Origin: an uncultured Gammaproteobacteria bacterium
Lineage (GTDB): Bacteria; Pseudomonadota; Gammaproteobacteria; DRLM01
Assembly: GCA_963810615.1 (NCBI GenBank)
Contig: CAWEOA010000004.1
Span: 8,874 to 72,873, forward strand
DNA length: 64,000 bases
Direction: 5' to 3'
Numbering within the stretch: position 1 is the first letter of the stretch; every line of letters starts with the position of its first letter. The position numbers were made by a program, and so were the translations under genes. The notes under the pieces are model-generated. The model made no database searches, was not told the DNA's origin, and worked only from the letters and a program-made list of their open reading frames with translations. Of this stretch, positions 13,914 to 48,056 are shown piece by piece.

Positions 13914-14238
13914 CGTTCCGTATCCGTCCGGTTTTCATCAAGCACCCTTGATTCGCGGCGGCGGCGATGCCAGAAAGGCGCCGCCGTGACTCCCTCGCGC
14001 GCGCGGGGGCGATTCACCTCATCCCTGACTTGCTGGATGAGTCCGCGTTGCTCGAGGCGATTGAGGATGTGGGTAACCGTGCCCTGACTGAGGCTGACGC
14101 GTCCCGCCAGTTCGCCGACGGTGAGGGGGCCGGCAGACCATGGCTTTCCAACAGCGTGCGGGAATGCAGATCCACGGCGCGAATCACTCGGCGCAGCGCG
14201 ATTATCACCTGGTCGGCAAGATTTGATTTGCCTTTCAT
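13910..14238 (-). pseudogene. decayed MarR-type winged-helix regulator
   Basis: The N-terminus LADQVIIALRRVIRAVDLHSRTLLESHGL is MarR-like. The recognition-helix part (PLTVGELAGRVSLSQGTVTHILNRLEQRGLI) is in a different frame. About 12 aa are missing between the two, and the wing looks degenerate. The shifted frame ends in a TGA that overlaps the sigma ATG (ATGA at 13910-13913). Confidence 0.5.
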
Positions 14239-14457
14239 GAGAGTAGGTTCCGCAAATTATCTCGTGTCATAACTATATTAAATCCCCCCATCACCTTGGA
14301 CGCGCCTTGAAAAAAAGCCAATCTCCTGTAAAATTATGGCCTTAATTCACACATCGCCGCACTGCGGCACGGCGAATATCGTTTTGACCAAAAACAATAT
14401 TGGCAAGGAGCGTCGCCGGCGTACCTTGGGACGGCTCCTCCAATTATCTAAGTTGCC

Positions 14458-14730
14458 ATGACGGCCAAGCTCATCAGCCTCCTCACGCGCCATTGTAGCT
14501 TGCGAATCTCTGCACTGGTCGCCTTGTTATTGATATGGCAGCTGCCGACCGCGCTCGCCGAGACGCCACCGCAGACCCCCAGCCTGTCCAGCGATACCGA
14601 GAAGGTGACCGTGGCCCATCATCCGCCCTATCGCGCGTTTATGTTTTTCGTCGGCCTGGGTATGGTGGTATTGGTCGCGACACTGCCGCTGGAACGCAGC
14701 GCGGAAAGGGAACGCGATGACAGGCACTGA
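14458..14730 (+). CDS. possible small secreted/membrane protein
   Basis: Signal-like N-terminus (ISALVALLLIWQLPTALA) and one TM segment (FMFFVGLGMVVLVATL). No SD sequence and no homology recognised. Overlaps the next gene by 14 nt. Confidence 0.3.
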   Translation: MTAKLISLLTRHCSLRISALVALLLIWQLPTALAETPPQTPSLSSDTEKVTVAHHPPYRAFMFFVGLGMVVLVATLPLERSAERERDDRH

Positions 14731-15958
14731 ACTGCGAGTCAATGCCCAGCGCCTCCGCGAGGATATCGATGCCCTGGCGCGCATCGGCCGTCATGAAGAT
14801 CACGGCATCTATCGCATGTCCTTCAGCACGGGAGACAAGGCGGGCCGCGACTGGTTGCGGCAACGCATCACCGACAGCGGCTTGACCCTTCATCAGGACG
14901 GCGCCGCCAATATCTGCGCCCGCCTCAACTGGGACGGCAAGACTCCAGGCGTCATGGCTGGCTCGCACATCGATACCGTGCCCGGCGCCGGTCATCTCGA
15001 CGGCGCGCTGGGTGTGGTGTGCGCACTGGAAGCGCTGCGGGTCTTGCAGGAAGAAAATATCAGCTTGCGCCGCCCCCTGGAGGCGGTAGCCTTCACCGAC
15101 GAAGAAGGCCGTTTCGGCGGCATGTTCGGCTCGCAGGCCATCGCCGGCCTGGTGACGCCGGAGTATCTGCACAATGCCTGCGACCTAGACGGGGTCAGCC
15201 TGGTCACCGCCATGGCGGAACACGGCCTGGATGCCCGCGAAGCCCTGCACGCCCAGCGCCCGCCCGGCAGTATTCACGCCTATGTGGAACTGCACATCGA
15301 ACAAGGACCGGTGCTGGATCGCAAGGGCGTCAGCATCGGTATCGTCGACGCCATCACCGGCCTGTTCAAATGGGAGATCACCTTGAGCGGCGCCGCCAAC
15401 CACGCCGGCACCACCCCCATGAACATGCGCACCGACGCCTTTCAGGGACTGGCGGAATTCGCCGGCGAGATCGACCGCGTGCTGGAGGAGTACGGCAGCC
15501 CGCGCAGCACCGCCACCATCGGCCGGGTCGAGCTGATACCGGGTGCGGCCAACGTCATCCCCGGACAGGTGATCTTTTCACTGGACGTGCGCGACGCGGA
15601 CGACGCCACCCTGCAGATGCTGGGCGACGCCTTTAACCGCACCCTGGCGGCCATCGCGCGTCGCCGCGGCCTGATGTTCGAGTTCGCGGTGTTGAGCGAA
15701 CTCGCGCCGGTGCGCTGTGCCGCGCAGGTGCTGCAGGCCATCGAACAAGCGGTGGAAAACGCAGGGCTGTCTTCGACCCACATCACCAGCGGCGCCGCCC
15801 ACGACGCCCAGATCATCGCCGGCATCGCCCCCGCCGGGATGATCTTCGTGCCCAGCAAGGAAGGCCGCAGCCACTCGGCGGCGGAGTGGACCGCCTGGGC
15901 CGACATCGAGGCCGGGGCCAACACCTTATTGAACGCATTGCGGCGATTGGCAAGTTGA
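14717..15958 (+). CDS. M20-family amidohydrolase (N-carbamoyl-L-amino-acid hydrolase / allantoate amidohydrolase family)
   Basis: The motifs GSHIDTVPGAGHLDGALGV, FTDEEG, ELHIEQGPVL, GAANHAGTTPM and GAAHDA are characteristic of the AmaB/AllC-type subfamily. AAGGGA lies upstream of the ATG. Confidence 0.85.
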   Translation: MTGTELRVNAQRLREDIDALARIGRHEDHGIYRMSFSTGDKAGRDWLRQRITDSGLTLHQDGAANICARLNWDGKTPGVMAGSHIDTVPGAGHLDGALGVVCALEALRVLQEENISLRRPLEAVAFTDEEGRFGGMFGSQAIAGLVTPEYLHNACDLDGVSLVTAMAEHGLDAREALHAQRPPGSIHAYVELHIEQGPVLDRKGVSIGIVDAITGLFKWEITLSGAANHAGTTPMNMRTDAFQGLAEFAGEIDRVLEEYGSPRSTATIGRVELIPGAANVIPGQVIFSLDVRDADDATLQMLGDAFNRTLAAIARRRGLMFEFAVLSELAPVRCAAQVLQAIEQAVENAGLSSTHITSGAAHDAQIIAGIAPAGMIFVPSKEGRSHSAAEWTAWADIEAGANTLLNALRRLAS

Positions 15959-15960
15959 AC

Positions 15961-16710
15961 ATGAGCAAGGAAAACGAAAAAGACATCAAGGCGGGCATCG
16001 AGGCTTTTCTCGAAGTCGATCCCTTACGGGATACCTATCGGAAATCTATCACCCATACACCGGCGGTAACACGCTCGTTGCGGGCACACAAAACCGCACT
16101 GCTGTGTATCGACCTGCAATATCTGGACGCGGCGCCGGGATACGGCGTGTTCGCCGACGTAGCGGCCTCGGGCGTACCCCTGGAGGCGCAGGAATATTAT
16201 TTCGAGCGTCTGCATAACATCGTATTACCCAATGTGCGCCGCCTACAGGATGCCTTTCGCGTCCATCAACTGGAAGTGATCCACACCCGCATTCAGTCCC
16301 TCACCCAGGACGGCCGCGACCGCAGCGTCGGACACAAGCGTCTCGGCTTGCACGCCGCGCCGGGTTCCAAGGAGGCCGAGTTCATTGAACAGGTCGCACC
16401 CATCGACAACGAGATCGTCATCAACAAAACTGCCAGCGGCGTGTTCAACGCCACCAATATCGAATACATCCTGCGCAACATGGACATCAACGGTCTGGTG
16501 GTGGTGGGCGTCTACAGCAACGAATGCGTGTCCACCGCGATCCGCGACGCCTGCGACCTGGGTTTTCACGTCACCCTCATCGCCGACGGCTGCGCCACGG
16601 TGACCCCCGAACTGCAGAAGGCCACCATCACCACCATGAAGGACCGCTATGCGCGGGTGATGACCGCCGATGAGGCCATCGCCGAGATTCAACAGGTGGT
16701 GGAATCATGA
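15961..16710 (+). CDS. isochorismatase-family cysteine hydrolase (amidase-type)
   Basis: Catalytic-triad contexts LLCIDLQ (Asp), VINKTASGVF (Lys) and VVGVYSNECVSTAIRDA (Cys). Start taken at the ATG at 15961, 2 nt after the M20 stop. Confidence 0.85.
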   Translation: MSKENEKDIKAGIEAFLEVDPLRDTYRKSITHTPAVTRSLRAHKTALLCIDLQYLDAAPGYGVFADVAASGVPLEAQEYYFERLHNIVLPNVRRLQDAFRVHQLEVIHTRIQSLTQDGRDRSVGHKRLGLHAAPGSKEAEFIEQVAPIDNEIVINKTASGVFNATNIEYILRNMDINGLVVVGVYSNECVSTAIRDACDLGFHVTLIADGCATVTPELQKATITTMKDRYARVMTADEAIAEIQQVVES

Positions 16711-16828
16711 ACAACATGCACAGCGCCGCGCTGGCCTGGTTGGCTGGTCGGCATCGCTACTCTGGTCACGGTGCTGGCACCCATCGTGTTGATCATTTTC
16801 TGGATAGAGACTTGGTAAAGGGACGCTT

Positions 16829-17890
16829 ATGGTAGACAACACACTACACCCCAGATTGCAGGAACCCGTCGAGAAACACATCCTGGACACCCAGGGATTC
16901 GAACGTCCCCGCGAACTGCTGGATCACATCGAGGAGGACCTCACCCCTCTGCTGAGTCTGGCGCAGCGCCCGGTGGTCTCGGCGCGTCAATTCAATCGCG
17001 AACAGCTGACCCAACTCGCCCGTCTGGCCGCCCGTTACGAGACCCAGCCGCAGTTGATCACCCGGCCGCTGACCGGCAAGATCCTCGTCAGCGCCTTCTA
17101 CGAACCCAGCACCCGCACCCGCCTGTCGTTCGAGAGCGCCTGGCACCGCTTGGGCGGCGATATCATGTCCATTACCGACCCCGCCTCCACCGGTATCGCC
17201 AAGGGCGAATCGCTTTACGACGTGGGCGAGATGCTCAATCATTACGGCGACCTGGTGGTGCTGCGCGACAGCGACGCCAACGCCGTGTACGAAATGCTGG
17301 AATCGCTGCGCATCCCCATCATCAACGGCGGCAACGGCAGTGACGAGCACCCCACCCAGGCCATGGCCGACATCTATACCCTGCTCAAATGGCGGCCCAC
17401 GCTGTGCACGTCGGACATCGATCCAACCCAGCGCATCCATATCGGCATCATCGGCGTGCCGGGACGCATGCGCACCGTGCGCAGCCTGCTGTCGCTGTTG
17501 TCGCTGTTCGCCAATGCCATCAAGGAAGTGCTGATCATCAGCGATGAGAAACAGCCGTTCAGCAAGGGCCAGCGCGAAGACCTGGAGAAAGCGGGCTTGA
17601 ATCTGCGTGTCGCCTCCAACTTGAAAAAAGAGTTGCCCAAGCTGGATGTGGTCTACATTAATACCATCGCCTGGCTCGGCGACGACTACGAAGAACTGGG
17701 CAGCCGTTACCGCCTGGACAAGTCCTCACCGCTGAAAGAGGACGCCATCATCCTCCATCCCCTGGCGCGTGGCCAGGAACTGCAACGCGAACTCGACGAC
17801 ACGCCCCACAACTGGTACTTCGCTCAGGCCCGCGGCGCGGTGTTCATGCGCATGGCGCTGTTGTCTTCAATCTTGAAGGTGTTTACTTGA
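16829..17890 (+). CDS. aspartate/ornithine-carbamoyltransferase-fold protein with an atypical second-substrate site
   Basis: Carbamoyl-phosphate motifs are present: STRTR (FYEPSTRTRLSFE), HPTQ (SDEHPTQAMAD), KGESLYD. The C-terminal domain has GRMRTVRS and HPLA. See the findings for the deviations from PyrB. Confidence 0.8.
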   Translation: MVDNTLHPRLQEPVEKHILDTQGFERPRELLDHIEEDLTPLLSLAQRPVVSARQFNREQLTQLARLAARYETQPQLITRPLTGKILVSAFYEPSTRTRLSFESAWHRLGGDIMSITDPASTGIAKGESLYDVGEMLNHYGDLVVLRDSDANAVYEMLESLRIPIINGGNGSDEHPTQAMADIYTLLKWRPTLCTSDIDPTQRIHIGIIGVPGRMRTVRSLLSLLSLFANAIKEVLIISDEKQPFSKGQREDLEKAGLNLRVASNLKKELPKLDVVYINTIAWLGDDYEELGSRYRLDKSSPLKEDAIILHPLARGQELQRELDDTPHNWYFAQARGAVFMRMALLSSILKVFT

Positions 17891-17891
17891 T

Positions 17892-19898
17892 ATGTGTGGA
17901 ATAGCCGGATTTATATACGCAGACCGAACCCGTCCCGTCGAACCGGAAACCCTGGTGGCGATGGCGGCCATCCAACATCACCGCGGCCCCGACGGCTTCG
18001 GCTGGCAGGCCAGGGACGGCGTGGGCTTCAGCCACGCCCGCCTGTCCATCATCGACCTTAATGAGCAGCGGGCGCGCCAACCCTTCGTCTCCGCCGACGA
18101 ACGGCTGATGCTCACCCAGAACGGCGAGATCTACGACTATCAACGCCTGCGCGCCGAACTCACCGCCCGCGGCGCGCGCTTTCGCACCAAGAGCGATTCG
18201 GAGCTCATCCTGCATCTCTATCCCTGGCTGGGTCTGGACGGCAGCCTGCCCAATTTGCGCGGCGAGTTCGCCTTCGCCCTGCACGACCGCGATGAAGACT
18301 GCGTGCATCTGGTGCGCGACCGTTTCGGCATCAAGCCGCTGTATTGGACCGAGATCGACGGCGGACTGGTGTTCGGCTCCGAACTCAAGGTGTTGTTCGC
18401 CCATCCCGCGGTGACGCGCCGTTTCGACTCCGCCGGCCTCTATCACCAACTCATGCAGACCATCGTGCCGGGCAGCACCGCCTTCGCCGGCGTCCATCAG
18501 GTCAAGCCCGGCCATGTGCTTACCGTCACGCGCCGCGACGGTCGGCTGCACATCAGCGATCGCCGCTACTGGGACATGCCGTTCCCCCGCGAAGACGCGC
18601 GCGGCACGCCCGATGATGAAGCCGAATACATCGACGGCGTGCGCGAACGCCTGATCAACGCCGTGCAACTGCGCCTGGAAGCGGACGTACCGGTGGGCTG
18701 TTATCTATCGGGCGGCATCGATTCCTGCTCCATCATCGGCCTGGCCGCCGCCAGCACCCAGGGCGCGGTCAAGGCCTTCACCATCGGCTTCGACAACGCC
18801 GACTATGACGAGACACCCATCGCCCGGGAAATGGCCGAGGCCGTCGGCGCCGACCAGGAAGTACTGCGCCTCGACGCCACCCATCTCTACGATCATTTCG
18901 AAGAGACCCTCTGGCACACCGAACGCACCATCTACAACACCCTGGGCGTGGCCAAGATGCTCATGAGCCGCCGTGTCAACGAGCTCGGTTACAAGGTGGT
19001 GCTGACCGGCGAAGGCTCCGATGAGTTGTTCGGTGGTTATCCCGCCTTCCGCCGCGACATGTTTCTGCACGGACTCGACCATCTGCCCGCCGATGAACGC
19101 CGCGAGTGGGAGGCGATGCTGACCGAGAGCAATAAGCTGTTCAGCGGCGCCATGCTCTCCGAAGAGACCATCGACGATCCCGCCCTCAGCGCCAAGGTCG
19201 GCTTCACACCGTCATGCCTGCAGCCGTGGCTGGCCAGCGCGCAACGGGTACCGGCCCTGCTGCATCCCGAGCGCCGCGCCGAATTGAAATCTTACTCGCC
19301 GGGTGCCGCCATCGCCGACGCCTTGGACGGAGATGCGCTGCAGGACCGCCATCCCCTGGACCGCGCCCAATACGTGTGGATCAAGACCATGCTCGAAGGC
19401 CAGATCCTCACCTGGGGCGGCGACCGGGTGGACATGGCCAATTCCATGGAGGCCCGCCCGCCCTTCCTCGACCATCACCTCGCCGAGTACGCGGCACAGT
19501 TGCCGCCGTCCATGCGCATTCACGGCCGCACCGAGAAATACGTATTGCGCGAAGCCATGAAAGGCCTGTTGCCGGAAACCCTCTACAAGCGAGAGAAGTT
19601 CGCCTTCATGGCGCCCCCGGCCCATACCGATCCGCAGAAGTGGCAGGCCATGCAAACCCTGGCCAAACGCCACCTCGACCCGACAACGGTTGCGGCCGCC
19701 GGCCTGCTGGACCCGGACGGTGTCTCGGCCCTGTTCAAGCTGCACGAGTCGCCGGACACCTCCTCCGCTACCCAGACCCAGCTCGACGCTGTCATCAATC
19801 ATCTCATCGGCGTGCAAATCCTCCACGAACGCTTTATCGCTGCCGATATCCCTGCCGAGGCGCGGCGCAAGGCGCAGCAACTCGGCTGGCACCCATAG
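17892..19898 (+). CDS. asparagine synthase-type glutamine-hydrolysing amidotransferase (long AsnB/AsnO-like form)
   Basis: N-terminal nucleophile MCGIAG, a GATase-II domain and the PP-loop CYLSGGIDSC. 668 aa. Starts 1 nt after the preceding stop. Confidence 0.9.
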   Translation: MCGIAGFIYADRTRPVEPETLVAMAAIQHHRGPDGFGWQARDGVGFSHARLSIIDLNEQRARQPFVSADERLMLTQNGEIYDYQRLRAELTARGARFRTKSDSELILHLYPWLGLDGSLPNLRGEFAFALHDRDEDCVHLVRDRFGIKPLYWTEIDGGLVFGSELKVLFAHPAVTRRFDSAGLYHQLMQTIVPGSTAFAGVHQVKPGHVLTVTRRDGRLHISDRRYWDMPFPREDARGTPDDEAEYIDGVRERLINAVQLRLEADVPVGCYLSGGIDSCSIIGLAAASTQGAVKAFTIGFDNADYDETPIAREMAEAVGADQEVLRLDATHLYDHFEETLWHTERTIYNTLGVAKMLMSRRVNELGYKVVLTGEGSDELFGGYPAFRRDMFLHGLDHLPADERREWEAMLTESNKLFSGAMLSEETIDDPALSAKVGFTPSCLQPWLASAQRVPALLHPERRAELKSYSPGAAIADALDGDALQDRHPLDRAQYVWIKTMLEGQILTWGGDRVDMANSMEARPPFLDHHLAEYAAQLPPSMRIHGRTEKYVLREAMKGLLPETLYKREKFAFMAPPAHTDPQKWQAMQTLAKRHLDPTTVAAAGLLDPDGVSALFKLHESPDTSSATQTQLDAVINHLIGVQILHERFIAADIPAEARRKAQQLGWHP

Positions 19899-19983
19899 TG
19901 CCGACAGCAGGCAATACCGCGATAAGGAAGTCCTATTAAAATGTCCCGTCGCCCGGTGCATCGGGCGACCTTATCTCTAGTGG

Positions 19984-20748
19984 GTGGATAAGGACATGCT
20001 GGAACTGGCAAATATCAGCAAACGCTACGGCAAAACTCAAGCGCTGGCGCACTGTGAGTTACAGGTGTCGGCGGGCGAGACCGTGGTGCTCATCGGACCC
20101 AGCGGCTGCGGCAAGTCCACACTGCTGCGGTTGATCGCCGGACTGATCCAGGCGGATTCCGGCACCATCGTCTTCACGGGCGAGACGCTGACGCAGGACA
20201 ATATCCTGCAGGCGCGGCAACGCATGGGCTATGTCATTCAGGAAGGCGGCCTGTTTCCCCATCTCAGCGTACGTGACAATGTCATCGTCATGGCGCGTTA
20301 TCTGCGCCGCGACCCAGCCTGGATAGCAAACCGCATCACCGAACTGGCGCAACTAGTACGCTTGCCGTTGGAACTGATGATGCGTTACCCGGCCGAGCTA
20401 TCGGGCGGACAACGCCAGCGCGTCAGCTTGATGCGCGCCTTGATGCTGGACCCGGAGTTGCTGCTGCTGGACGAACCCCTGGGCGCGCTGGACCCCATGA
20501 TCCGCTATGAACTGCAGCAGGAACTCAAGGCCATCTTCCGCCAACTGGGCAAGAGCGTGGTGATGGTCACCCACGACATCGCCGAGGCCGCTTATTTCGG
20601 CCATACCCTGGTATTGATGCGCGACGGCCGCATCGTCCAGACCGGCCCCTTCAAGGAACTGGCGCGCTCACCGGCCGAGCCATTCGTAGAACAATTCATC
20701 ACCGCGCAGCGCGACCCGCTGGAGCAACTGGCCGAGGCCTTAAAATGA
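19984..20748 (+). CDS. ABC transporter ATP-binding protein, osmoprotectant (OpuC/OpuB) type
   Basis: Walker A GPSGCGKST, signature LSGGQRQRVSLMRA, Walker B LLLDEPLGALD. The ATG at 19996 (MLELANISKRYG) is an alternative start. Confidence 0.9.
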   Translation: MDKDMLELANISKRYGKTQALAHCELQVSAGETVVLIGPSGCGKSTLLRLIAGLIQADSGTIVFTGETLTQDNILQARQRMGYVIQEGGLFPHLSVRDNVIVMARYLRRDPAWIANRITELAQLVRLPLELMMRYPAELSGGQRQRVSLMRALMLDPELLLLDEPLGALDPMIRYELQQELKAIFRQLGKSVVMVTHDIAEAAYFGHTLVLMRDGRIVQTGPFKELARSPAEPFVEQFITAQRDPLEQLAEALK

Positions 20749-22274
20749 AGACCCGGCTGTGGCTGGCAACATTGCTGATGACGCTCTGCAGCATTCAGGT
20801 ATCACCGGCTTTTAGTGCCGCAACACCCGCGACCGTCACCGTTGCCTCGAAAAACTTCACCGAATCGGTGATCCTCGGCGAGATGCTGCGCCTGCTCGCC
20901 AAACACAGCGGTGCCGAGGCCGTGCATCGCCGCCAGCTGGGCGGCACCCGCGTACTGTGGAACGCCCTGCTCAACGGCGAGATCGACGCCTATCCTGAAT
21001 ACACCGGCACCCTGCTGCAGGAAATCATGGTCAAGGAAAACGTGAATAGCGATAAACAACTCGAAGCGGCCCTAGCCGAGCGCGGACTGCGCATGACCCG
21101 CCCCCTGGGCTTCAACAACACCTACGCCATCGGCGTCAAAGAGACGCTGGCAAAAAAACTCGGGCTGTACACCATCTCCGATTTACGCCGGCACCCCGAG
21201 CTGGTGATGGGCTTCAGCAATGAGTTCATGGATCGCGCCGACGGCTGGCCCGGCCTGCAGCGGCGTTATAGACTCCCGCAACAAAACGTCCGGGGACTGG
21301 ACCACGACCTGGCCTACCGCGGCCTGGAATCGGGCACCTTGCAGGTCATGGACCTTTACGCCACCGACGCTGAAATCTCCTATTACAAGCTGCGCACGCT
21401 TAAGGACGATCTCCATTATTTTCCGGTCTATGATGCCGTCATCCTCTATCGCGCCGATATGCAACAGCGCGCGCCAGAGATGGTGGCCCTGCTCAAACGG
21501 CTGGCGGGCCGCATCGACGCCGCCGCCATGAGCGCTATGAACGCGCGGGTGAAATTGAACGGCGAGAGCGAAACGGCGGTGGCGGCGGATTTTCTCGAGA
21601 AGAACCTGGACATCGATGTGGACTATCGCCTGCAAGGCCCGTGGCAACGCTTCCGGCAACACACCTCCGAGCACCTGATCCTGGTGGCCATCTCCCTCTC
21701 CGCGGCGATCCTCATCGCCGTGCCGCTCGGCGTCCTGGCCGCCGTCCGCCCGCGCCTCGGCCAGTTCGTATTGGCTACCACCAGCATCCTGCAGACCATC
21801 CCGTCCCTAGCGCTGTTCGTGTTCATGATCCCCTTGCTGGGCATCGGCGCACCGCCGGCAATCCTGGCCTTGTTTCTCTACAGCCTGCTGCCCATCGTTC
21901 GCAACACCTATGCCGGACTCAAGGATATTCCGCCGACCGTGATCGAATCGGCGCGCGCACTGGGTCTGCCGCCGGGAGCGCGGCTGCGCATCGTGGAACT
22001 GCCCCTCGCCACCCGCGCCATCCTCGCCGGCATCAAGACCTCTGCCGTGCTCAACGTCGGCACTGCCACCCTCAGCGCCCTGATCGGCGCCGGCGGCTAT
22101 GGCCAACCCATCCTCACCGGCATACGCCTCGACGACATCGGCCTGATCCTGCAAGGCGCAGTCCCGGCCGCCGTCTTAGCGCTGTTGGTACAAGGCCTGT
22201 TTGAATTGATCGAGCGCAGTCTCATGCCCAAGGGACTGCGTATACAGACGAGCAAAGTGCGATCTCTCGAATAA
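20745..22274 (+). CDS. fused substrate-binding protein and permease of a glycine-betaine/choline-type ABC importer
   Basis: Signal peptide, then an OpuAC-like binding domain (KNFTESVILGEML, NTYAIGV). The C-terminal 6-TM permease has an EAA-type loop (ESARALGLPPGARLRIVELPLA). ATGA overlap with the ATPase gene. Confidence 0.85.
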   Translation: MKTRLWLATLLMTLCSIQVSPAFSAATPATVTVASKNFTESVILGEMLRLLAKHSGAEAVHRRQLGGTRVLWNALLNGEIDAYPEYTGTLLQEIMVKENVNSDKQLEAALAERGLRMTRPLGFNNTYAIGVKETLAKKLGLYTISDLRRHPELVMGFSNEFMDRADGWPGLQRRYRLPQQNVRGLDHDLAYRGLESGTLQVMDLYATDAEISYYKLRTLKDDLHYFPVYDAVILYRADMQQRAPEMVALLKRLAGRIDAAAMSAMNARVKLNGESETAVAADFLEKNLDIDVDYRLQGPWQRFRQHTSEHLILVAISLSAAILIAVPLGVLAAVRPRLGQFVLATTSILQTIPSLALFVFMIPLLGIGAPPAILALFLYSLLPIVRNTYAGLKDIPPTVIESARALGLPPGARLRIVELPLATRAILAGIKTSAVLNVGTATLSALIGAGGYGQPILTGIRLDDIGLILQGAVPAAVLALLVQGLFELIERSLMPKGLRIQTSKVRSLE

Positions 22275-22329: not shown

Positions 22330-22700
22330 ACGGCGCTTGCAACAGGATGGCTTTTCACAATTGACTTGGGCAATCTGGGTGCCTACTACCGTCAATATCT
22401 ACGGCTCATGGAAAATTGGCGCAAGATGCTCAACGTAGCGATGATGGAGGTCCGCTATGAGGAATTGGTGGCCGACCAGGAAAGTATAAGCAGGAAAATA
22501 GTGGAGCATTGCCGCCTGAAATGGGATGAACGCTGTCTGCGTTTTCACGAGACGCAGCGAGTGGTCGCCACTGCCGGTTATGATCAGGTCCGCCAACCTT
22601 TGTACAGCCGTTCAGTGGGTCGCTGGCAACACTACTAAGTCATCTCGAACCCTTACGCCACGCCCTGGACCAAGCAAGCGCCGGGGAAACTACCGCGTAA
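22330..22700 (+). pseudogene. 3' remnant of a sulfotransferase gene
   Basis: YYRQYLRLMENWRKML...VRYEELVADQESISRKIVEHCRLKWDERCLRFHETQRVVATAGYDQVRQPLYSRSVGRWQHY matches sulfotransferase C-termini. The N-terminal PAPS-binding part is absent. The last ~20 aa (HLEPLRHALDQAS) are in a shifted frame. Confidence 0.65.
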
Positions 22701-31765: not shown

Positions 31766-34681
31766 ATGGCTCGCACTAACGAATCCTCGCCGCATCTGGT
31801 CGATACCCACTTAGTCAAAACCTGGTTGTACTGGTCCTTGGCGTGGCTGACGGTCTTTCCCCTGGTGGGGCTGTTGGTGTCCATCAAGTTCCACAACCCG
31901 GGATTTCTCGGCACCGAGCCGTGGTTCACCTTCGGCCGATTGCGGCCGGTGCACGTCAACGGCGTGATATTCGGCGCCTTCAGCACGCCCTTCCTCGGCC
32001 TGCTCTATTATCTGGTGCCACGGCTTGCCGGACGACCCATGGCCGGTATGGCCTTCAGCCGCTGGGCGCTGTGGGGCTGGCAGGTCTTCATCGTCACCGG
32101 CACCCTGTCCTTCCTGTTCGGTTACAACCTGGGCTTCGAGGCGGACGAATTCCAATGGCCATGGAACATCCTGCGCTTCGTGGTGCTGAGCATCATCGGC
32201 ACCCAGGTGCTGGTGACTCTGTTCCGGCGCAAGGAGGGCGGTTTCTACGTCGCCCTATGGTACGCGGTGGCCGCGCTGGTATGGACCCTGATGAATCTCA
32301 TCCTCGGCAACGTGGTGCTTCCCTATGTGCACATGTCCGGCATCAGCAACGCCGCGCTGCACGGCTTGTACATCCACTACGTGGTGGGTTTGTGGATCAC
32401 GCCCGCGGGCCTGGCGCTGATGTATTATTTCATCCCGCTGGCGTGCAAGAACCCGTTGTTCAGCCATGCCCTGTCCAAGTTCGGATTCTGGACCATCGCC
32501 CTGCTCTATCCGTTTCTGGGCACCCATCATTATCTGTTCAGCCCCATCCCTTATCACAATCAGACCATCTCCATCGTTACCAGCATGCTGTTGATCATCC
32601 CGGTATGGGCGGTGGTCACCAATCACTTCGGTACCGCGCTGGGACGCTGGGGCGCCATCGCCCACGGCACCGATGCCGACAGCTATGGCGCCAAGTTTTT
32701 ACTGCTGGCGGTGTTCTTCTATCTGGTGGGTTGTTTTCAAGGATCGACCGAAGCCTTGCGCCGCGTCCAGGAGCTCACCCACTTCAGCGACTTCGTGATC
32801 GCCCATTCCCACTTCACAGTGTTCGGCACCTTCGTGGTCGCGGTGGTGGGCTCCATGTATTTCGTGTGGCCGCGCGTTACCGGCCGGCAGTTGTGGAGCG
32901 CGCGCATGGCCAGCTGGCACTTCTGGCTGACCATCGCCGGCGCCAGCGTGATGTTGCTGGGGCTGACCGCGCAGGGCTTCATCCAGGGCAGCATGCTGGA
33001 ATACGGAGCCAATTGGGTGGATACCGTGGTGGAGATGAAACCGTGGTGGGTGGCGCGCACCCTGGCGGGAGCCACCATGGACATCGGTTTCGTGCTGATG
33101 GTCTACAACTTCATCCAGACGGCACGCCATGGGGCGCCGTTCAAGGAGACGCCATACGGCGAGGCGCTGCAGACTCGTCCCGCCGGCGAGGAACGCCGCA
33201 TCATCAGCACGCCCTCGGGCGTGGTGCTGATCGCCGGCATCAGCTACTTCCTGATCGCCGTGGTGGTACAGGGCATCTGGCCCTCGCTGCTGCCGGAGAC
33301 CAATACCCCGGATGTCACCGATGCCGAGACCGGCCTGCCCATCAAGGCCACTGACTATACCCCGTTGCAACGACGCGGCCGCCAGGTCTATATCCGCGAG
33401 GGTTGCTGGTACTGCCATTCGCAATATATCCGCCCGGTTACCGGCGAGACCTCGCGCTGGGGCCCGCTCTCCCAGGCCGGTGAATATGACTTCGATCAAC
33501 CCCATATGCTCAGCACACGGCGCATCGGTCCGGACCTGTTCCGCGTCGGCCGCAAATATGCCGACGGCTGGCATGCGGCGCATCACTGGAATCCGCGCAA
33601 CATCGTGCCCGATTCCATCATGCCACGCTTTCCATGGCTGTTTAAACCGGCGCAGGGCGATAAGGCGCCCGAACTCAATGACGACGGCAAGGCGCTGGTG
33701 GCCTATCTGCAAAAGCTGGGCACCAACATCGGAGACTGGCGCGAAACCTTCACGCCCACGCGCCTGATCAGCGGCGCCGCTATACAATTGAGTGCGCGCG
33801 ACAAGCAGGCTTTGATCCCCAAGGGCAAGCGGGTTTATGAACGACGCTGCATCGGCTGTCACGGCGCCAAGGGCGACGGCAAAGGACCGGCAGCGCGTTT
33901 CTTCAAGACCAAGCCGCGGGATTTTACCACCGGTATTTTCAAATTCCGCTCCACCGGCGGCGGCGCCAATACGCTGCCTTCCGATCAGGACTTGTTCATT
34001 ACCATCAGCCACGGTCTGTGGGGTACGCCCATGCCGCCCTGGTACAAGATCTCCAGCGAAGAACGGCTGGCGGTAATCCAATATATCAAGACCTTTTCCG
34101 ATCGCTGGCAGAAAGAGCCGGTTAATCCGCCCATCGATATCCCGCCCGAGCCGGCGGTGACCGCCGCCTCCATCAACCGCGGCCAAACTCATTTCAATCA
34201 GATCTGTTTCACCTGCCACGGCAAGGACGGCAAGGGTGACGGCCCCCTGGCCGCCAGCCTCACCGACACCTGGGGACATGCGGTCACGCCGGCCAATTTC
34301 ACCCTCCCCGCCGGAGTACCTGGCGGCGTCAAGCTCGGCCACGACGGCACCCACATCTTCAAAACCGTCATGACCGGCGTGGGTGGCACACCCATGCCGG
34401 CCTTCGCCGGGACCTTCAAGCCCGGCGAGGTGTGGGACATCGTGCACTTCGTACAATCGCTGCGGGTGGATGCGCATGTGCAACACATGCAGGTGGTCGG
34501 CCTAGATAAAAGCAATGTGGACAAGGCACGCCGCCGCATCTGGGGCAGCCTGTCCCAGGCCGCCGCGGACGGACACATCGGTGATCCCGTGGTCGCCGGA
34601 AACTATCACCATGCCCCGGCCAAGGCGCGGCACGTCGCCCAGGCCGCCACCGCACAAATACAAGGAATACCATCGCCATGA
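31766..34681 (+). CDS. ccoNOP: cbb3-type cytochrome c oxidase with subunits I (CcoN), II (CcoO) and a dihaem CcoP-like domain fused in one 971-aa polypeptide
   Basis: CcoN His-containing segments RPVHVNG, IHYVVGLW, GTHHY, AHSHFTVFG. CcoO segment GCWYCHSQYIRP...RIGPDL...SIMPRFPWLF. Two further CxxCH sites (RCIGCHGAKGDGKG, ICFTCHGKDGKGDG). Confidence 0.85.
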   Translation: MARTNESSPHLVDTHLVKTWLYWSLAWLTVFPLVGLLVSIKFHNPGFLGTEPWFTFGRLRPVHVNGVIFGAFSTPFLGLLYYLVPRLAGRPMAGMAFSRWALWGWQVFIVTGTLSFLFGYNLGFEADEFQWPWNILRFVVLSIIGTQVLVTLFRRKEGGFYVALWYAVAALVWTLMNLILGNVVLPYVHMSGISNAALHGLYIHYVVGLWITPAGLALMYYFIPLACKNPLFSHALSKFGFWTIALLYPFLGTHHYLFSPIPYHNQTISIVTSMLLIIPVWAVVTNHFGTALGRWGAIAHGTDADSYGAKFLLLAVFFYLVGCFQGSTEALRRVQELTHFSDFVIAHSHFTVFGTFVVAVVGSMYFVWPRVTGRQLWSARMASWHFWLTIAGASVMLLGLTAQGFIQGSMLEYGANWVDTVVEMKPWWVARTLAGATMDIGFVLMVYNFIQTARHGAPFKETPYGEALQTRPAGEERRIISTPSGVVLIAGISYFLIAVVVQGIWPSLLPETNTPDVTDAETGLPIKATDYTPLQRRGRQVYIREGCWYCHSQYIRPVTGETSRWGPLSQAGEYDFDQPHMLSTRRIGPDLFRVGRKYADGWHAAHHWNPRNIVPDSIMPRFPWLFKPAQGDKAPELNDDGKALVAYLQKLGTNIGDWRETFTPTRLISGAAIQLSARDKQALIPKGKRVYERRCIGCHGAKGDGKGPAARFFKTKPRDFTTGIFKFRSTGGGANTLPSDQDLFITISHGLWGTPMPPWYKISSEERLAVIQYIKTFSDRWQKEPVNPPIDIPPEPAVTAASINRGQTHFNQICFTCHGKDGKGDGPLAASLTDTWGHAVTPANFTLPAGVPGGVKLGHDGTHIFKTVMTGVGGTPMPAFAGTFKPGEVWDIVHFVQSLRVDAHVQHMQVVGLDKSNVDKARRRIWGSLSQAAADGHIGDPVVAGNYHHAPAKARHVAQAATAQIQGIPSP

Positions 34682-36904: not shown

Positions 36905-38161
36905 ATGAAAACCAAACCCATAAATGAGGGCTACAGCAAGGCAATCGGTTTGTTGCATGATTGCGCTGCCGAACATGGCTTCCTCGCCTCGCCGACCAGA
37001 AACTCCAACTACCGGCGCATCTGGGGACGCGACGGCGCCATCATGGCGCTGGCGGCCCTTGTAAGTCGGGACCAGCACCTGATCAACACCGCGAGATGCA
37101 CCTTTGAGACGCTGGCGGAACATCAGGGTCCGCATGGCGAAATTCCCGCCAACATTGACCCCGGCACGAATCGAACCAGCTACGGCGGCACCGCCGGTCG
37201 AATCGACACCGACCTATGGTTCATCATCGGCTGCGGTGAATACTGGTTGGCTACGGAAGACAACCTTTTCCTGGAACGGCTATTGCCTACCCTGGAGAAG
37301 GTGCGTTTCCTACTTGGGGCCTGGGAATTCAACAATAGAGGATTACTCTACGTGCCACTGACCGGTGACTGGGCCGATGAATATCTGCACAACGGTTATG
37401 TCCTGTACGATCAGCTGCTATATCTCCAGGCGCAACGCACTCTCGCCCGCATTCACACCGCCATCCATGGTTCAAGCGACCATGGCCTGCAAGAACGGAT
37501 CGGACGCCTTCACCATCTCATCTGCACTAATTACTGGTTCGAAGACGGTGATACGGTCCCCGACGATGCCTATCATGAAGTGCTCTATAAAAAGGGTCAT
37601 AAAGCGGCGAGTCACCGTCCCGAACGGCATTGGCTCCCCTCCTTTTCTCCGACCGGCTATGGCTATCGCTTCGACAGCCTCGCTAACGTCTTGGCTTCCT
37701 TGCTGGACGTAGCCAGTGACGCACAGAGCGAAACCGTGGATGAATATATCGATAAATTTCTCGTTAGTGACGATCGATTGATATTGCCCGCATTCCACCC
37801 GGTCATCGAGCCGGTGGACGAAGACTGGGAACACTTGCAGGTGATGTTTTCCTACACCTTCAAGAACAAACCCTACGAATATCATAACGGCGGCCTTTGG
37901 CCCATGGTCACCGGATTCTATGTGGCGGCCCTGGCAAAACGCGGCCGAACCGACAGGGCCAGGCGCTTTCTCTCGGCCATACATACCGCCAATGCCTCGA
38001 CCATGGAAGGTGAAGCTTGGGGGTTCCCCGAATATCTCAACGGCAAAACCGGCGAACCCGGCGGCACCCGCTATCAAGGCTGGAGTGCGGCGGCGGCGGT
38101 CATCGGCCACCACACCGCGGCAGGGGATAAGCTATTCAAGATCGATGGGCATGACGTATAA
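36905..38161 (+). CDS. six-hairpin glycosidase, GH100 (neutral/alkaline invertase)-like or GDE_C-like
   Basis: NYRRIWGRDGAIMALAAL and GRIDTDLWFIIGCGEYW parallel the NY..VF.RD and GRV.PVDS.LWWI motifs of GH100. C-terminal YHNGGLWP. The family call is tentative. Confidence 0.6.
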   Translation: MKTKPINEGYSKAIGLLHDCAAEHGFLASPTRNSNYRRIWGRDGAIMALAALVSRDQHLINTARCTFETLAEHQGPHGEIPANIDPGTNRTSYGGTAGRIDTDLWFIIGCGEYWLATEDNLFLERLLPTLEKVRFLLGAWEFNNRGLLYVPLTGDWADEYLHNGYVLYDQLLYLQAQRTLARIHTAIHGSSDHGLQERIGRLHHLICTNYWFEDGDTVPDDAYHEVLYKKGHKAASHRPERHWLPSFSPTGYGYRFDSLANVLASLLDVASDAQSETVDEYIDKFLVSDDRLILPAFHPVIEPVDEDWEHLQVMFSYTFKNKPYEYHNGGLWPMVTGFYVAALAKRGRTDRARRFLSAIHTANASTMEGEAWGFPEYLNGKTGEPGGTRYQGWSAAAAVIGHHTAAGDKLFKIDGHDV

Positions 38162-39555: not shown

Positions 39556-41391
39556 ATGAGCCAGCATCTCGCCGTCAACCTGGGACTGATCGTTGCCCTG
39601 GGCATCGCTGCCCAGTGGCTGGCGTGGCGAATACGCATACCGGCCATCATCCTGCTAGTGGCGGCGGGAGTTACCATCGGTCCAGTGCTCGGCTGGGTTC
39701 AGCCATCGCGTGACTTCGGTAACATCCTTCATGCCATGGTTGCCTTATCCGTGGCGGTGATTCTGTTCGAGGGCGGATTGAACCTGCGCTGGCACGAATA
39801 CCGTGAAACCGGTATCGACGTAATTCGCCTGGTGAGCATCGGCCTGGTGTTGACCTGGACCCTGAGTAGCATGGCCGCCCATTATATTGCGCATCTTTCA
39901 TGGCCGATCGCCGTGATTTTCGGCGCCATCATCGTGGTGACCGGTCCCACGGTCATCACCCCGTTGCTCAAACAAGCCAAGCTACAGCGCCGCCCCGCCG
40001 CCTTGCTCAAATGGGAAGGCATCATCAACGATCCCGTGGGCGCGCTGCTGGCAGTGCTGGTGTTCGAGTACTTCTCCGCATCGGAACATACACCCATTTT
40101 CATTGACGTACTTGGTGATCTGGGAATGTCCCTGGCCATTGCCGTCATCGTCGGCAGTGCCATCGCCTATATGCTCTCATGGAGTTTCCTGCGCGGACTG
40201 GTTCCCGAATATCTCAAGGCGCCGGTGATGCTGGCGACGATCCTGATCCTGTATGTCTCGCTGAATCGCTTTCAGGATGAGGCCGGCCTGTTGGCGGTAA
40301 CCGCGGCGGGCGTGGTACTTGCCAACCGCCATCTGCGCAACATCGATGAATTGCGGCGCTTCAAGGAATACATCACTGTGATCTTGGTCTCCGTGGTGTT
40401 CATCCTGCTCACCGCCGATATCGACCCCGGCGTGCTGACGCATCTCGACAGGCGCAGCGCCGCGCTGCTCGCCGCCATTATTTTCGTCGTGCGGCCCATG
40501 GCGGTATATACAGCCACTCTCGGCAGCCACATGGACTGGCGGGAGCGTTTGCTGGTGGCGTGGGTGGCGCCGCGCGGCATTGTTGCGGCGGCCGTTGCCG
40601 GCTTATTCGCGCCGCGCCTGATTGAAAAAGGCTATGCCGGCGCCGAGCAACTGCTGCCGCTGGTATTCGCCCTAATCGTCACGACCGTGGTGGTGCACGG
40701 CCTCAGCATCGGTTGGCTGGCCCGGCGCCTCAAGCTGGCGGCACAACGCGCCAATGGCCTGCTGATTGTCGGCGCCTCGCCCTGGTCGGTGGAGTTGGCG
40801 CATACGCTCCAGGATTTGAAGATGCCTACCATTCTCAGCGACACCAGCTGGAACCACTTGCACGGCGCTCGCATGGCCGGTGTCCGGCAGACACATCACG
40901 GTGAGATCCTCTCGGAACGATCCGAAGAGACGCTGGAACTCAATGAGATCAGCCATCTGCTGGCCGCCACCGCCAACGATGCCTATAACGCCCTGGTCTG
41001 CACCCGCTTTGCTCCCGAAATCGGGCACAATCAAGTGTATCAATTACCGTCCACGCACAAAGAAGAGAACGGCATCAAAGAGGTGGCGCGCACCCTGCGC
41101 GGGCGCATCGCCTTCGATGAAGACACCCGTTATGAAGATTACGTGCGTTACCACTATGAAGGATGGGAATTCCATAGCACTCAGCTCAGTGATGAATATT
41201 CGTTCGAGGATTTCACCCATGATCTGCCTCTGGACAGCATTCTGATCGTGTCCGTGAGCGCAAAGGGCGAGATAGTCCTGTTTCCCCTTCAGGACAATGC
41301 CCAACTCCAGGCAGGCGACACGATCGTCAGCTACCGGCCGCCCATGCAAACGACGAGCGACCACCTCGATACGCGTTTCTCGCCTCGCTGA
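39556..41391 (+). CDS. CPA1-type Na+(K+)/H+ antiporter (NhaP-like) with a large cytoplasmic C-terminal domain
   Basis: About 12 TM segments and an ...INDPVGALLAV... motif. The ~200-aa soluble tail includes an RCK/TrkA-C-like end (LQAGDTIVSY). Confidence 0.8.
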   Translation: MSQHLAVNLGLIVALGIAAQWLAWRIRIPAIILLVAAGVTIGPVLGWVQPSRDFGNILHAMVALSVAVILFEGGLNLRWHEYRETGIDVIRLVSIGLVLTWTLSSMAAHYIAHLSWPIAVIFGAIIVVTGPTVITPLLKQAKLQRRPAALLKWEGIINDPVGALLAVLVFEYFSASEHTPIFIDVLGDLGMSLAIAVIVGSAIAYMLSWSFLRGLVPEYLKAPVMLATILILYVSLNRFQDEAGLLAVTAAGVVLANRHLRNIDELRRFKEYITVILVSVVFILLTADIDPGVLTHLDRRSAALLAAIIFVVRPMAVYTATLGSHMDWRERLLVAWVAPRGIVAAAVAGLFAPRLIEKGYAGAEQLLPLVFALIVTTVVVHGLSIGWLARRLKLAAQRANGLLIVGASPWSVELAHTLQDLKMPTILSDTSWNHLHGARMAGVRQTHHGEILSERSEETLELNEISHLLAATANDAYNALVCTRFAPEIGHNQVYQLPSTHKEENGIKEVARTLRGRIAFDEDTRYEDYVRYHYEGWEFHSTQLSDEYSFEDFTHDLPLDSILIVSVSAKGEIVLFPLQDNAQLQAGDTIVSYRPPMQTTSDHLDTRFSPR

Positions 41392-46610: not shown

Positions 46611-48056
46611 TCATTCATACGCGTGCCGGGATCCATCGTCATCGCCGACCCTTCCCGATACGGTCACCCGTAACCAGAGGTATCCGCACAGGCCGGCGAT
46701 TAAGGACGCCAGTAAGATAGCGCTCTTGGCGGTCAATAATTGGTCGGCTGAGGACTCGAAATTCAGACCGGCGATGAAAATCGACATGGTAAATCCCATG
46801 CCACCCAGCAGACCGATACCTATAACATGCTTGATATTCATCGCCGGGGAAAGATCGCCGAACCCGGACTTGAGTGCCAACCAGCAAAAGCCGGTAATAC
46901 CAACCACCTTGCCTATCACCAGTCCCAACACAATTCCCAAGGTAATAGGGCTGGTCAGCAACGCCGGCAGTGCCGCGAGATGTATGGGCACTGCAGCATT
47001 GGCCAAGGCAAAGACCGGTAGGATCAACAGCGCAACGGGACTTTCCAGGGTTCGCTCCCACGATTGCAGCGGTGTCGTGACTTCATGGGCCGTTTCCTGA
47101 ATACGTTCGACCACGGCATGCTGATCTTCCGCCGCCAGTATGCTGGCGGAGCCCTGCACGCCTTGCTCTTTTCGCTGCTCTAGGTTTTCGAACTTATCCA
47201 TCAAACGTCGCGTCCTTCCCAAGAACCAAAACGGCCCGCGCCGCGGCCGCGCCGGCACGGTAAATGCCACCAGGATACCGGCCACCGATGCATGTACACC
47301 CGATTCGAGCATCGCCAGCCATACCAGCCCCCCACCCAGCAAATAGGGCACGGCATGGCGTACCCCCAGCAGATTGAGTAACACCAGACCTGCCAATACT
47401 ATGAATGCCAGTAGCAGGTGCGCCAGGCTGAGCGAGTCGCTATAGAACACGGCGATCACCATGACCGCGCCGATGTCATCAATGATGGCGAGAGCCGTGA
47501 GAAATGCCGCCAATGCCGCGGGGATGCGACTACCGAGCAACGCCAGCACGCCCACCGCAAAGGCGGTATCGGTCGCCAGGGGGATACCCCAGCCGTGGGA
47601 TGAAGCCGTTCCGGCATTGAATCCGGCGTAGATCAAAGCCGGCACAGTCATCCCGCCGACCGCGGAGGCGATCACCGGAATGGCGAGTCTGACATTTTGC
47701 AGTTCCCCCGCCAGCAACTCACGCTTAATTTCCAACCCTATCACGAAGAAGAATAGCGCCATGAAACCATCGTTTATCCAGTGATGCAGATCCTTGCCGA
47801 AGGTGAAATTCCCCACGCTCATGCCGATACGCGTGTGCAGCAGGTTTGTATATGCTTCGCTCCATGACGAATTGGCGAGCACCAGAGCTGCCACCGTGCA
47901 AATCAGCAGCAGCACACTTGCCGTAGTCTCATCGCGAATGAATCCCTGAAACGGAGTCACAATCTTCTCGAATCCCCTTTGCATGGGATTACTGAAGAGC
48001 TCGTCGTCCGCACGCTCCTCATGGGCGGTTTTCGTTTGCCTGACGTCATCCTGCAT
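46611..48056 (-). CDS. nhaA: Na+/H+ antiporter NhaA
   Basis: FFFVIGLEIKRELLAGEL and AIIDDIGAVMVIA (the DD pair) are NhaA signatures. Longer N- and C-terminal tails than E. coli NhaA. Confidence 0.9.
   Translation of the reverse strand: MQDDVRQTKTAHEERADDELFSNPMQRGFEKIVTPFQGFIRDETTASVLLLICTVAALVLANSSWSEAYTNLLHTRIGMSVGNFTFGKDLHHWINDGFMALFFFVIGLEIKRELLAGELQNVRLAIPVIASAVGGMTVPALIYAGFNAGTASSHGWGIPLATDTAFAVGVLALLGSRIPAALAAFLTALAIIDDIGAVMVIAVFYSDSLSLAHLLLAFIVLAGLVLLNLLGVRHAVPYLLGGGLVWLAMLESGVHASVAGILVAFTVPARPRRGPFWFLGRTRRLMDKFENLEQRKEQGVQGSASILAAEDQHAVVERIQETAHEVTTPLQSWERTLESPVALLILPVFALANAAVPIHLAALPALLTSPITLGIVLGLVIGKVVGITGFCWLALKSGFGDLSPAMNIKHVIGIGLLGGMGFTMSIFIAGLNFESSADQLLTAKSAILLASLIAGLCGYLWLRVTVSGRVGDDDGSRHAYE

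Follow-up and report, generated by a model that had tools for sequence, protein, structure and literature searches.

What do an amidase, a cysteine hydrolase, a transcarbamoylase and an amidotransferase accomplish when their genes stand side by side? This question is raised by a stretch of 64,000 nt (the window, by which we mean the whole of the DNA analyzed) from contig CAWEOA010000004.1 of an uncultured Gammaproteobacteria bacterium (GTDB lineage DRLM01), in which the genes for an M20-family amidase (M20), an isochorismatase-type hydrolase (Iso), an aspartate carbamoyltransferase (ATCase)-like transcarbamoylase (TC) and an AsnB-type amidotransferase (Asn) follow each other on one strand. The best explanation, to which we assign a probability of about one half, is that the four enzymes would make and break down N-carbamoyl-L-glutamine 1-amide (CGA), a compatible solute whose original report is said to be that of Galinski and Oren in 1991. 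We consider it highly probable that, whatever the exact compound, the genes constitute a pathway that has nothing to do with the synthesis of pyrimidines or asparagine and is dedicated to a small amino-acid derivative, N-carbamoylated and carboxamidated. The substrates, the product, the order of reactions and the osmotic role given below are those that we infer from the comparison of genomes.

The four enzymes are encoded on the forward strand by an M20 gene of the hydantoinase/carbamoylase family (14717..15958; PF01546 and PF07687), an isochorismatase-fold cysteine hydrolase gene (Iso, 15961..16710; PF00857, 114 bits), an ATCase-fold transcarbamoylase gene (TC, 16829..17890; both ATCase/OTCase Pfam domains) and a gene for a glutamine-dependent amidotransferase of the AsnB type (Asn, 17892..19898; PF13522/PF13537 and PF00733). 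M20 and Iso are separated by 2 nt, Iso and TC by 118 nt, and TC and Asn by 1 nt. The preliminary description of this DNA had listed six genes, these four and two of an importer downstream; all six open reading frames (ORFs) were verified at the coordinates claimed and on the same strand, neighbors overlapping or lying no more than 118 nt apart, and matches to Pfam and NCBIfam profiles upheld the family assigned to each. The four enzyme genes are intact in the window, with 84–92% identity to their counterparts in the nearest metagenome-assembled genomes (MAGs).

Related loci in other genomes, designated here by L numbers, were collected in three scans of species-representative genomes, which returned 221 loci, 168 of them unique (non-redundant) TC loci; confirmed relatives in two scans amounted to 468 and at least 578 species representatives. 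The cluster thus occurs in hundreds of other species, mostly marine. A neighborhood check on the co-occurrence of the ATCase-like/AsnB-like pair, proposed in the preliminary description, found Asn adjoining TC in 138 of the 140 assessable loci. M20 and Iso were both present in 104 loci, both missing in 28 and discordant in a single one (132/133 concordant). The split into an anabolic pair (TC and Asn) and a hydrolytic pair (M20 and Iso), which had been suggested earlier, is borne out by this adjacency and by the joint gain and loss of M20 and Iso. The gene of a Na+:solute symporter (SSF, PF00474) was found in 117 of 133 loci, and the order f5-M20-Iso-SSF-TC-Asn, where f5 is a gene described below, was the commonest (81 loci). 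Other orders were SSF-TC-Asn (32 loci, e.g., Idiomarina), M20-Iso-TC-Asn (16), f5-SSF-TC-Asn (10) and, in Leptospirales, f5-SSF-TC-M20-Iso-Asn (3). The synthetic and hydrolytic genes of the canonical locus share one orientation and are joined by overlaps or tiny gaps, the median gap from Iso to SSF being -4 nt. Among the 99 loci with full flanks, 51 contained a MarR gene; in many loci this gene was divergent from the cluster. Such clustering of the four enzymes greatly exceeds what chance would give, and the conserved unit is four enzymes, not six genes. No cluster from Halorhodospira appeared among the best 80 loci of each of two scans, which is not proof of its absence.

Database names of TC homologues are all the generic "aspartate carbamoyltransferase", and TC does share with PyrB the fold, both Pfam domains and, in the alignment with the Escherichia coli enzyme, the whole carbamoyl-phosphate site (STRTR, Lys84, Arg105 and HPTQ, i.e., His134-Pro-Thr-Gln137), as well as Arg167 and HPLxR. 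It differs in scoring below the PyrB equivalog cutoffs (198.6 vs. 236.95 for TIGR00670 and 191.2 vs. 263 for NF002032), in bearing an N-terminal extension of around 45 aa, in its low identity to E. coli PyrB (31–36%, vs. at least 58% within its own family across phyla) and in its neighbors, which are Asn, M20, Iso and the symporter rather than pyrI or pyrC, neither of which was found near the TC cluster. In ATCase, Arg229 and Gln231 bind the β-carboxylate of aspartate whereas Arg167 binds the α-carboxylate. Arg167 is retained in TC, Arg229 is replaced by Thr, Ala, Lys or Ser, and Gln231 by Ala or Ser; the PyrB segment YMTRVQKE, which contains R229 and Q231, reads YINxIAW. The conserved positions of this signature are the Asn, the Trp and a small residue (Ala, occasionally Ser), in members from Gammaproteobacteria, Spirochaetes and Myxococcota. 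With Arg167 kept and Arg229 and Gln231 lost, the pattern of TC fits an acceptor amino acid with a free α-carboxylate and a non-acidic side chain.

After 1.84 billion representatives had been searched exhaustively, an alignment was made, and a rough neighbor-joining tree of 23 sequences, in which the TC of the window stood among other non-PyrB ATCase-like proteins; the canonical PyrB representatives, all of them retaining TR(I/V)Q, formed a separate group. TC had previously been proposed to be a non-PyrB paralogue, with a place inside canonical PyrB in a phylogeny named as a result that would speak against this; the TIGR00670 score below cutoff, the replacement of R229 and Q231 and the position outside canonical PyrB in this rough tree all favor the proposal. 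A distant ATCase-like group of around 355 aa (P0132, P0135–P0150) presented the same N-terminal extension as TC, together with a degenerate carbamoyl-phosphate motif (e.g., SRTR, SETR or CTGR), and was devoid of KGES and HPLxR; its members could be pseudo-enzymes or catalyze some other reaction.

Asn begins with MCGIAG, which supplies the Cys2 nucleophile, and carries the PP-loop SGGIDS at residues 273–278; with its GATase and Asn_synthase domains, it has the features of an AsnB-type enzyme. Its score was 439 for TIGR01536 (cutoff 267) and 314 for the AsnO model TIGR03104, whose cutoff of 570 was not reached. M20 matched its family at full length and above the family cutoffs (389 vs. 204 for TIGR01879 and 507 vs. 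399 for NF006771), a property it shares with N-carbamoyl-L-amino-acid amidohydrolases, ErtE and allantoate amidohydrolases along with the predicted hydrolysis of an N-carbamoyl group beside a free carboxylate. It differs from ErtE and AllC in falling below both equivalog cutoffs (388 vs. 520 and 272.6 vs. 597.75, respectively) and in having no hydantoinase or ureide-pathway genes nearby. ErtE, an N-carbamyl-L-glutamate amidohydrolase, was the third-ranked named match of M20, below cutoff. The catalytic triad of Iso, which had been described as intact, is confirmed as Asp51 (in CIDLQ), Lys156 and Cys189 by the sequence and by alignment to solved cysteine hydrolases. The nearest solved relatives were the "cysteine hydrolase" 6xix/6xj4, biuret hydrolase 6xjm, the "putative amidase" 6azo, N-carbamoylsarcosine amidohydrolase 1nba and RutB. 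Iso shares the Asp-Lys-Cys triad with biuret hydrolase, N-carbamoylsarcosine amidase and RutB but lies far below the equivalog cutoffs of BiuH (75.6 vs. 370) and RutB (52.2 vs. 378). Its nearest characterized relatives use carbamoyl or ureido amides as substrates.

The link to CGA comes from the organism in which this solute was found. CGA was isolated from Ectothiorhodospira marismortui, and all reports of it concern this organism alone (PMC1224877, PMC3857566); the FOUO genome is that of its type strain, DSM 4180 (PMC8877833). In this genome (NZ_FOUO01000006.1, L157) the genes M20-Iso-TC-Asn appear in the same order as in the window and, also as in the window, without symporter; the YINxIAW signature of the DSM 4180 TC is identical to that of the window TC. 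All eight other Ectothiorhodospira species representatives retrieved share the arrangement, although one locus ends before Asn. In the Ectothiorhodospira loci a sucrose synthase gene is placed divergently upstream in 9/9 representatives, and in most a fructokinase gene follows downstream, with a MarR gene directly upstream of the cluster. Sucrose genes were found again in several other lineages with unrelated arrangements, directly after Asn and co-directional with it in L026 and L055 (a fusion of sucrose-phosphate synthase and sucrose-phosphate phosphatase, a sucrose-phosphate phosphatase, a fructokinase and an amylosucrase-like gene) and after Asn in L023 (sucrose-phosphate synthase, fructokinase and sucrose synthase). 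In all, 18 of the 99 loci with full flanks had a sucrose gene. Sucrose is one of the compatible solutes listed for purple sulfur bacteria (PMC7824335).

The presence of the cluster in the CGA producer, together with the repeated and independent adjacency of sucrose genes, is the strongest evidence obtainable without experiments. The connection with CGA, which the preliminary description had drawn, has thereby gained strong circumstantial support: the cluster is in the sole reported producer and its neighbors include genes for the osmolyte sucrose. Text searches of the literature found no genes assigned to CGA, nor any carbamoyltransferase/AsnB osmolyte cluster, and the database names, all of them generic, offer no rival annotation. 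On these circumstantial grounds, the four adjacent genes appear to be the best candidates yet for the synthesis and breakdown of CGA.

In the pathway that we propose, TC would act as an L-glutamine N-α-carbamoyltransferase, moving the carbamoyl group from carbamoyl phosphate onto the α-amino group of L-glutamine; Asn would then adenylate the free α-carboxylate of N-carbamoyl-L-glutamine and amidate it with glutamine-derived ammonia, giving CGA. The retention of Arg167 argues for TC acting before the amidation. For breakdown, Iso (a putative carbamoyl-amide amidase) would take off an amide nitrogen and M20 (a putative N-carbamoyl-L-glutamine amidohydrolase) would remove the carbamoyl group, leaving glutamine, CO2 and NH3. 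The order of these two steps may be reversed, and which of them belongs to Iso and which to M20 is uncertain because ureido bonds are what the characterized relatives of Iso cleave. The symporter, f5 and a microprotein encoded between the symporter and TC genes could serve the recapture or import of the solute, and the MarR regulator its control. In the window, a translationally coupled string M20-Iso-relic-TC-Asn is what is left after decay of the remaining genes.

The scheme recalls the system for N-acetylglutaminylglutamine amide (NAGGN), made up of the divergent MarR repressor PA3458, asnO (PA3459), ngg (PA3460) and a co-transcribed peptidase gene, PA3461 (PMC8070244). In both cases an AsnB-type enzyme makes, or here is predicted to make, the terminal α-carboxamide of an N-acylated glutamine, yielding an uncharged osmolyte, and is accompanied by an N-acylating enzyme and a hydrolase (PMC8070244); a divergent MarR gene is found there and also in many relatives of the present cluster. 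The differences lie in the N-blocking enzyme, which here is an ATCase-fold transcarbamoylase and not a GNAT or a ligase, with no dipeptide step; in Asn itself, with its 314 against the AsnO cutoff of 570; and in the hydrolases, an M20 carbamoylase and a cysteine hydrolase instead of an aminopeptidase. No GNAT/ATP-grasp (ngg-like) neighbor was found in the window or in related loci. The analogy suggests a cluster type for osmolyte synthesis and degradation with NAGGN-like logic, unannotated in databases.

CGA, an orphan compatible solute since 1991, now has a candidate of four genes that occurs in the producer strain and in hundreds of other genomes. If the proposal is true, osmolyte biosynthesis would gain a new logic in which a transcarbamoylase is combined with AsnB-type amidation. 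The pervasive mis-annotation of these proteins as "aspartate carbamoyltransferase", "asparagine synthase" and "allantoate amidohydrolase" would be corrected, and a nitrogen-rich solute (4 N per molecule) would be placed in ecologically important marine sulfur oxidizers and symbionts. We suggest, tentatively, that CGA may be widespread (Ectothiorhodospira, Thioalkalivibrio, the lucinid-clam symbionts Thiodiazotropha, Idiomarina, marine spirochaetes and others), with an ATCase fold that newly N-carbamoylates a neutral amino acid for an osmolyte, and with two dedicated enzymes for its degradation and a Na+ symporter in three parts (SSF, f5 and a 40-aa microprotein) at its side.

Several points weigh against the assignment to CGA. 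All steps of the pathway are drawn from comparative genomics, and the choice of glutamine as the putative substrate of TC follows solely from residues that this enzyme has lost. In the literature CGA figures as a minor solute of one organism (PMC3857566), whereas the cluster is found in several hundred species representatives. Thioalkalivibrio versutus carries the cluster (L189), and glycine betaine is reported as its main solute in a salt-transcriptome paper that makes no mention of the cluster genes (PMC9062515). Some carriers are MAGs from habitats not evidently saline (e.g., L003, labeled Methylomonas). The closest characterized relatives of Iso cleave ureido C–N bonds, not α-carboxamides. 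The apparent co-transcription of synthetic and hydrolytic genes entails the risk of an ATP-wasting cycle. Lastly, the regulator and the symporter are pseudogenes in the window, so that the window itself gives no pointer to osmotic control.

An alternative is another product made with the same enzyme logic, that is, an N-carbamoyl amino-acid amide or ureido-amide derived, for instance, from asparagine, alanine, glycine or β-alanine and serving as osmolyte, nitrogen store or signal, while the CGA of Ectothiorhodospira would arise by this or by another route. The substrate of TC is deduced merely from the loss of R229 and Q231, related ATCase-like subfamilies bear different motifs at the same position, and the cluster is far more widespread than the reports of CGA (PMC3857566). 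No natural product other than CGA is, however, known to require N-carbamoylation as well as carboxyl amidation in an organism that bears the cluster (PMC1224877), the signature is unchanged between the DSM 4180 and the window TC, and the third-ranked named match of M20, below cutoff as it is, uses N-carbamoyl-glutamate. We thus consider a different product unlikely, although it is the most serious of the alternatives to CGA.

A mainly catabolic role is improbable. The symporter, f5, M20 and Iso would then take up and degrade an exogenous ureido or carbamoyl compound, with TC working phosphorolytically or with TC and Asn forming an unrelated salvage pair; the translational tightness of f5-M20-Iso-symporter, with its median Iso to SSF distance of -4 nt, would suit this role, as would the usually catabolic character of the M20 and isochorismatase families. 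AsnB-type enzymes, in contrast, spend ATP to form amides and are out of place in catabolism. In Idiomarina and its relatives TC and Asn are retained although M20 and Iso are missing, in Ectothiorhodospira and in the window they are retained without symporter, and there is no carbamate kinase present for harvesting carbamoyl phosphate.

Even less probable is a tailoring cassette that would carbamoylate, and form an amide or lactam on, the larger scaffold of a peptide or secondary metabolite. AsnB homologues do include lasso-peptide and macrolactam cyclases, to which Asn gave weak matches, and a conserved micro-ORF of 40 aa precedes TC. Nevertheless, the cyclase models stayed far below cutoff (197 vs. 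525 and 110 vs. 300), the micro-ORF encodes a hydrophobic transmembrane segment that disappears along with the symporter and is absent in Ectothiorhodospira, and the cluster has no conserved protease, NRPS/PKS or exporter. That TC and Asn are housekeeping paralogues, a PyrB and an asparagine synthetase brought near nitrogen-metabolism genes by chance or loose co-regulation, is scarcely credible: the database label of TC and the passing of the generic TIGR01536 by Asn speak for it, but TC does not reach the PyrB cutoff, possesses neither R229 nor Q231, has only 31–36% identity to E. coli PyrB and belongs to a separate tree group, pyrI and pyrC are missing nearby, and the synteny with Asn holds in 138/140 loci.

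The comparison with related loci also clarified the sequence around the four enzymes, where remains of the missing genes were detected. A pseudogene of a MarR-family regulator (13985..14238, reverse strand) was recognized by tblastn with the MarR of L003: residues 1–38 matched with 71% identity in one frame and residues 50–97, also with 71%, in another, around 11 codons were missing and the C-terminal half was absent, so that the gene is frameshifted and truncated. Complete f5 proteins (e.g., L003:5989-6462) are around 170 aa long and consist of a signal peptide, a domain of around 70 aa and a C-terminal transmembrane anchor, with no match to any Pfam or NCBIfam family. f5 was present in 97 of the 117 symporter-positive loci vs. 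none of the 16 symporter-negative ones, and may be an accessory subunit of the transporter. Its relic in the window (14458..14730, forward strand, 90 aa) matched only residues 17–52 and 116–148 of the L003 protein by tblastn; it retains the signal peptide and the C-terminal transmembrane helix, has lost the central domain of around 65 aa and overlaps the start of M20 by 14 nt.

Between SSF and TC, the other loci present a constant spacer of around 115 nt that corresponds to a conserved micro-ORF with a single transmembrane segment, 40 aa in length in 102 of 116 detected cases (e.g., L003:9889-10007). Its consensus is MtISvtaLxxLVxxAlavTalAPvvLLxLwiRDwkrGxLW, its stop codon overlaps the start of TC (ATGGTAG or GTGGTGA), and no Pfam or NCBIfam match was obtained. 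The micro-ORF decays upon loss of the symporter, is absent in Ectothiorhodospira and is kept beside an orphan TC in Thiorhodospira sibirica. This orphan TC (L164:7974-9059) and its micro-ORF are flanked by a patatin-like gene on one side and a lipid A acyltransferase gene on the other, with no Asn, M20, Iso or symporter within 8 kb.

In the window, the space between Iso and TC is occupied by a relic ORF of 42 codons (16707..16835, forward strand), which joins the first approximately nine codons of the symporter to the last approximately nine of the micro-ORF and overlaps both the stop of Iso (ATGA) and the start of TC (ATGGTAG). Its N-terminus, MNNMHSAAL, resembles those of the symporters (MNGMQSASL...) and its end, ...RDLVKGRLW*, that of the micro-ORF consensus (...RDwkrGxLW*), the part coding for the transmembrane segment being in another frame. 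The 118-nt gap had been taken as a possible boundary between a catabolic and an anabolic module; this interpretation has to be abandoned, since the gap is the deletion scar of the symporter gene and the micro-ORF, still open as a reading frame, and the overlaps at both of its ends keep the translational link between Iso and TC and leave no module boundary. A role as a regulatory spacer was dropped because of the same open scar. The window thus reads as a stripped derivative of the canonical locus in which MarR, f5, the symporter and the micro-ORF are all reduced to relics.

In the interval from the MarR relic to the first cluster ORF, a candidate sigma-70-like promoter (TTGAAA-16-TAAAAT, 14307..14334, forward strand) was found, which is merely a candidate as the number of such matches across the region was not above that in shuffled sequences. 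A GC-rich hairpin of nine pairs with a weak T tail (19948..19969, forward strand) follows Asn; terminator-like sites across the region, this one included, were likewise not more numerous than in shuffles. The Rfam scan of the whole window gave no RNA family, and a riboswitch explanation of the intergenic regions was accordingly dropped.

Beyond the hairpin, 85 nt after Asn, begins the neighboring importer, made up of an ABC ATPase of 254 aa (19984..20748, forward strand; PF00005 as sole relevant domain) and, overlapping it by 4 nt, an OpuAC-type binding domain fused to a permease (20745..22274, forward strand; PF04069, 208 bits, and PF00528). The fold of the binding domain, its aromatic motifs and the fused permease are like those of the OpuB/OpuC/EgtU importers, whereas the order here is binding domain and then permease. 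The best solved relatives of the binding domain were OpuBC-derived sensors, Lmo1422, EgtUC, OpuCC/OpuBC and ProX (E from 1e-29 to 1e-45), and alignments to an OpuBC-derived sensor, Lmo1422 and EgtUC revealed that the four aromatic-cage motifs are retained (YPEYTGT, NNTYA, DLYATD and FPVYD). In the structures of OpuBC, Lmo1422 and EgtUC, the residues of this cage bind quaternary amines. The ATPase scored 216 bits with the proV-type model, below cutoff; osmosensing ATPases of OpuA/OpuC-type systems carry CBS domains, and none was detected here with Pfam.

Homologues of the binding domain/permease occurred near the cluster solely in the window, L002 and L009 (3/168 loci), and in the last two other genes intervene between the cluster and the importer. 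The view of a six-gene operon coupled to a compatible-solute importer was consequently not sustained, given this scarcity, the aromatic cage and the hairpin after Asn; the importer as the own transporter of the cluster was rejected on account of the 3/168 conservation and the cage. It is predicted to be independent, its probable ligand being a quaternary-ammonium solute (of the betaine, choline or ergothioneine type) and not the product of the cluster. Such an importer fits a salt-stress neighborhood, yet would hardly transport an uncharged carbamoyl amide. Directly after Asn, L002 (13138-13971) and L009 (13199-14020), the two nearest relatives in possession of this importer, encode a protein of around 275 aa with a glycine-rich motif like that of class I S-adenosylmethionine-dependent methyltransferases (VLDVGAGNG, read by eye); this ORF is absent from the window, where the 85-nt spacer with the hairpin is found instead. 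Just downstream of the importer lies what is probably a gene fragment, an ORF of 90 aa (22366-22638) that matches the sulfotransferase family PF13469 only in its C-terminal 50 or so positions.

As for the wider surroundings, an osmoadaptive context had been proposed from sodium exchangers in the same window. An NhaP-type exchanger (39556-41391) and NhaA (46611-48056) are indeed present, but at 15–25 kb downstream of the cluster they are too distant to count as linked. The same downstream stretch contains a GH100 (neutral invertase)/MGH1-like glycoside hydrolase (36905-38161), whose substrate could be sucrose or a glycoside osmolyte. The G+C content of the cluster region (14–22 kb) was uniform, between 0.60 and 0.64, and across the window it ranged from 0.45 to 0.64 (in 2-kb windows), with low values at 26–32, 48–50 and 60–64 kb. 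An apparent CcoN-O-P fusion of a cbb3-type oxidase is encoded by a single ORF of 971 aa (31766-34681), in which COX1 (cytochrome oxidase subunit I), FixO and two cytochrome c domains are united.

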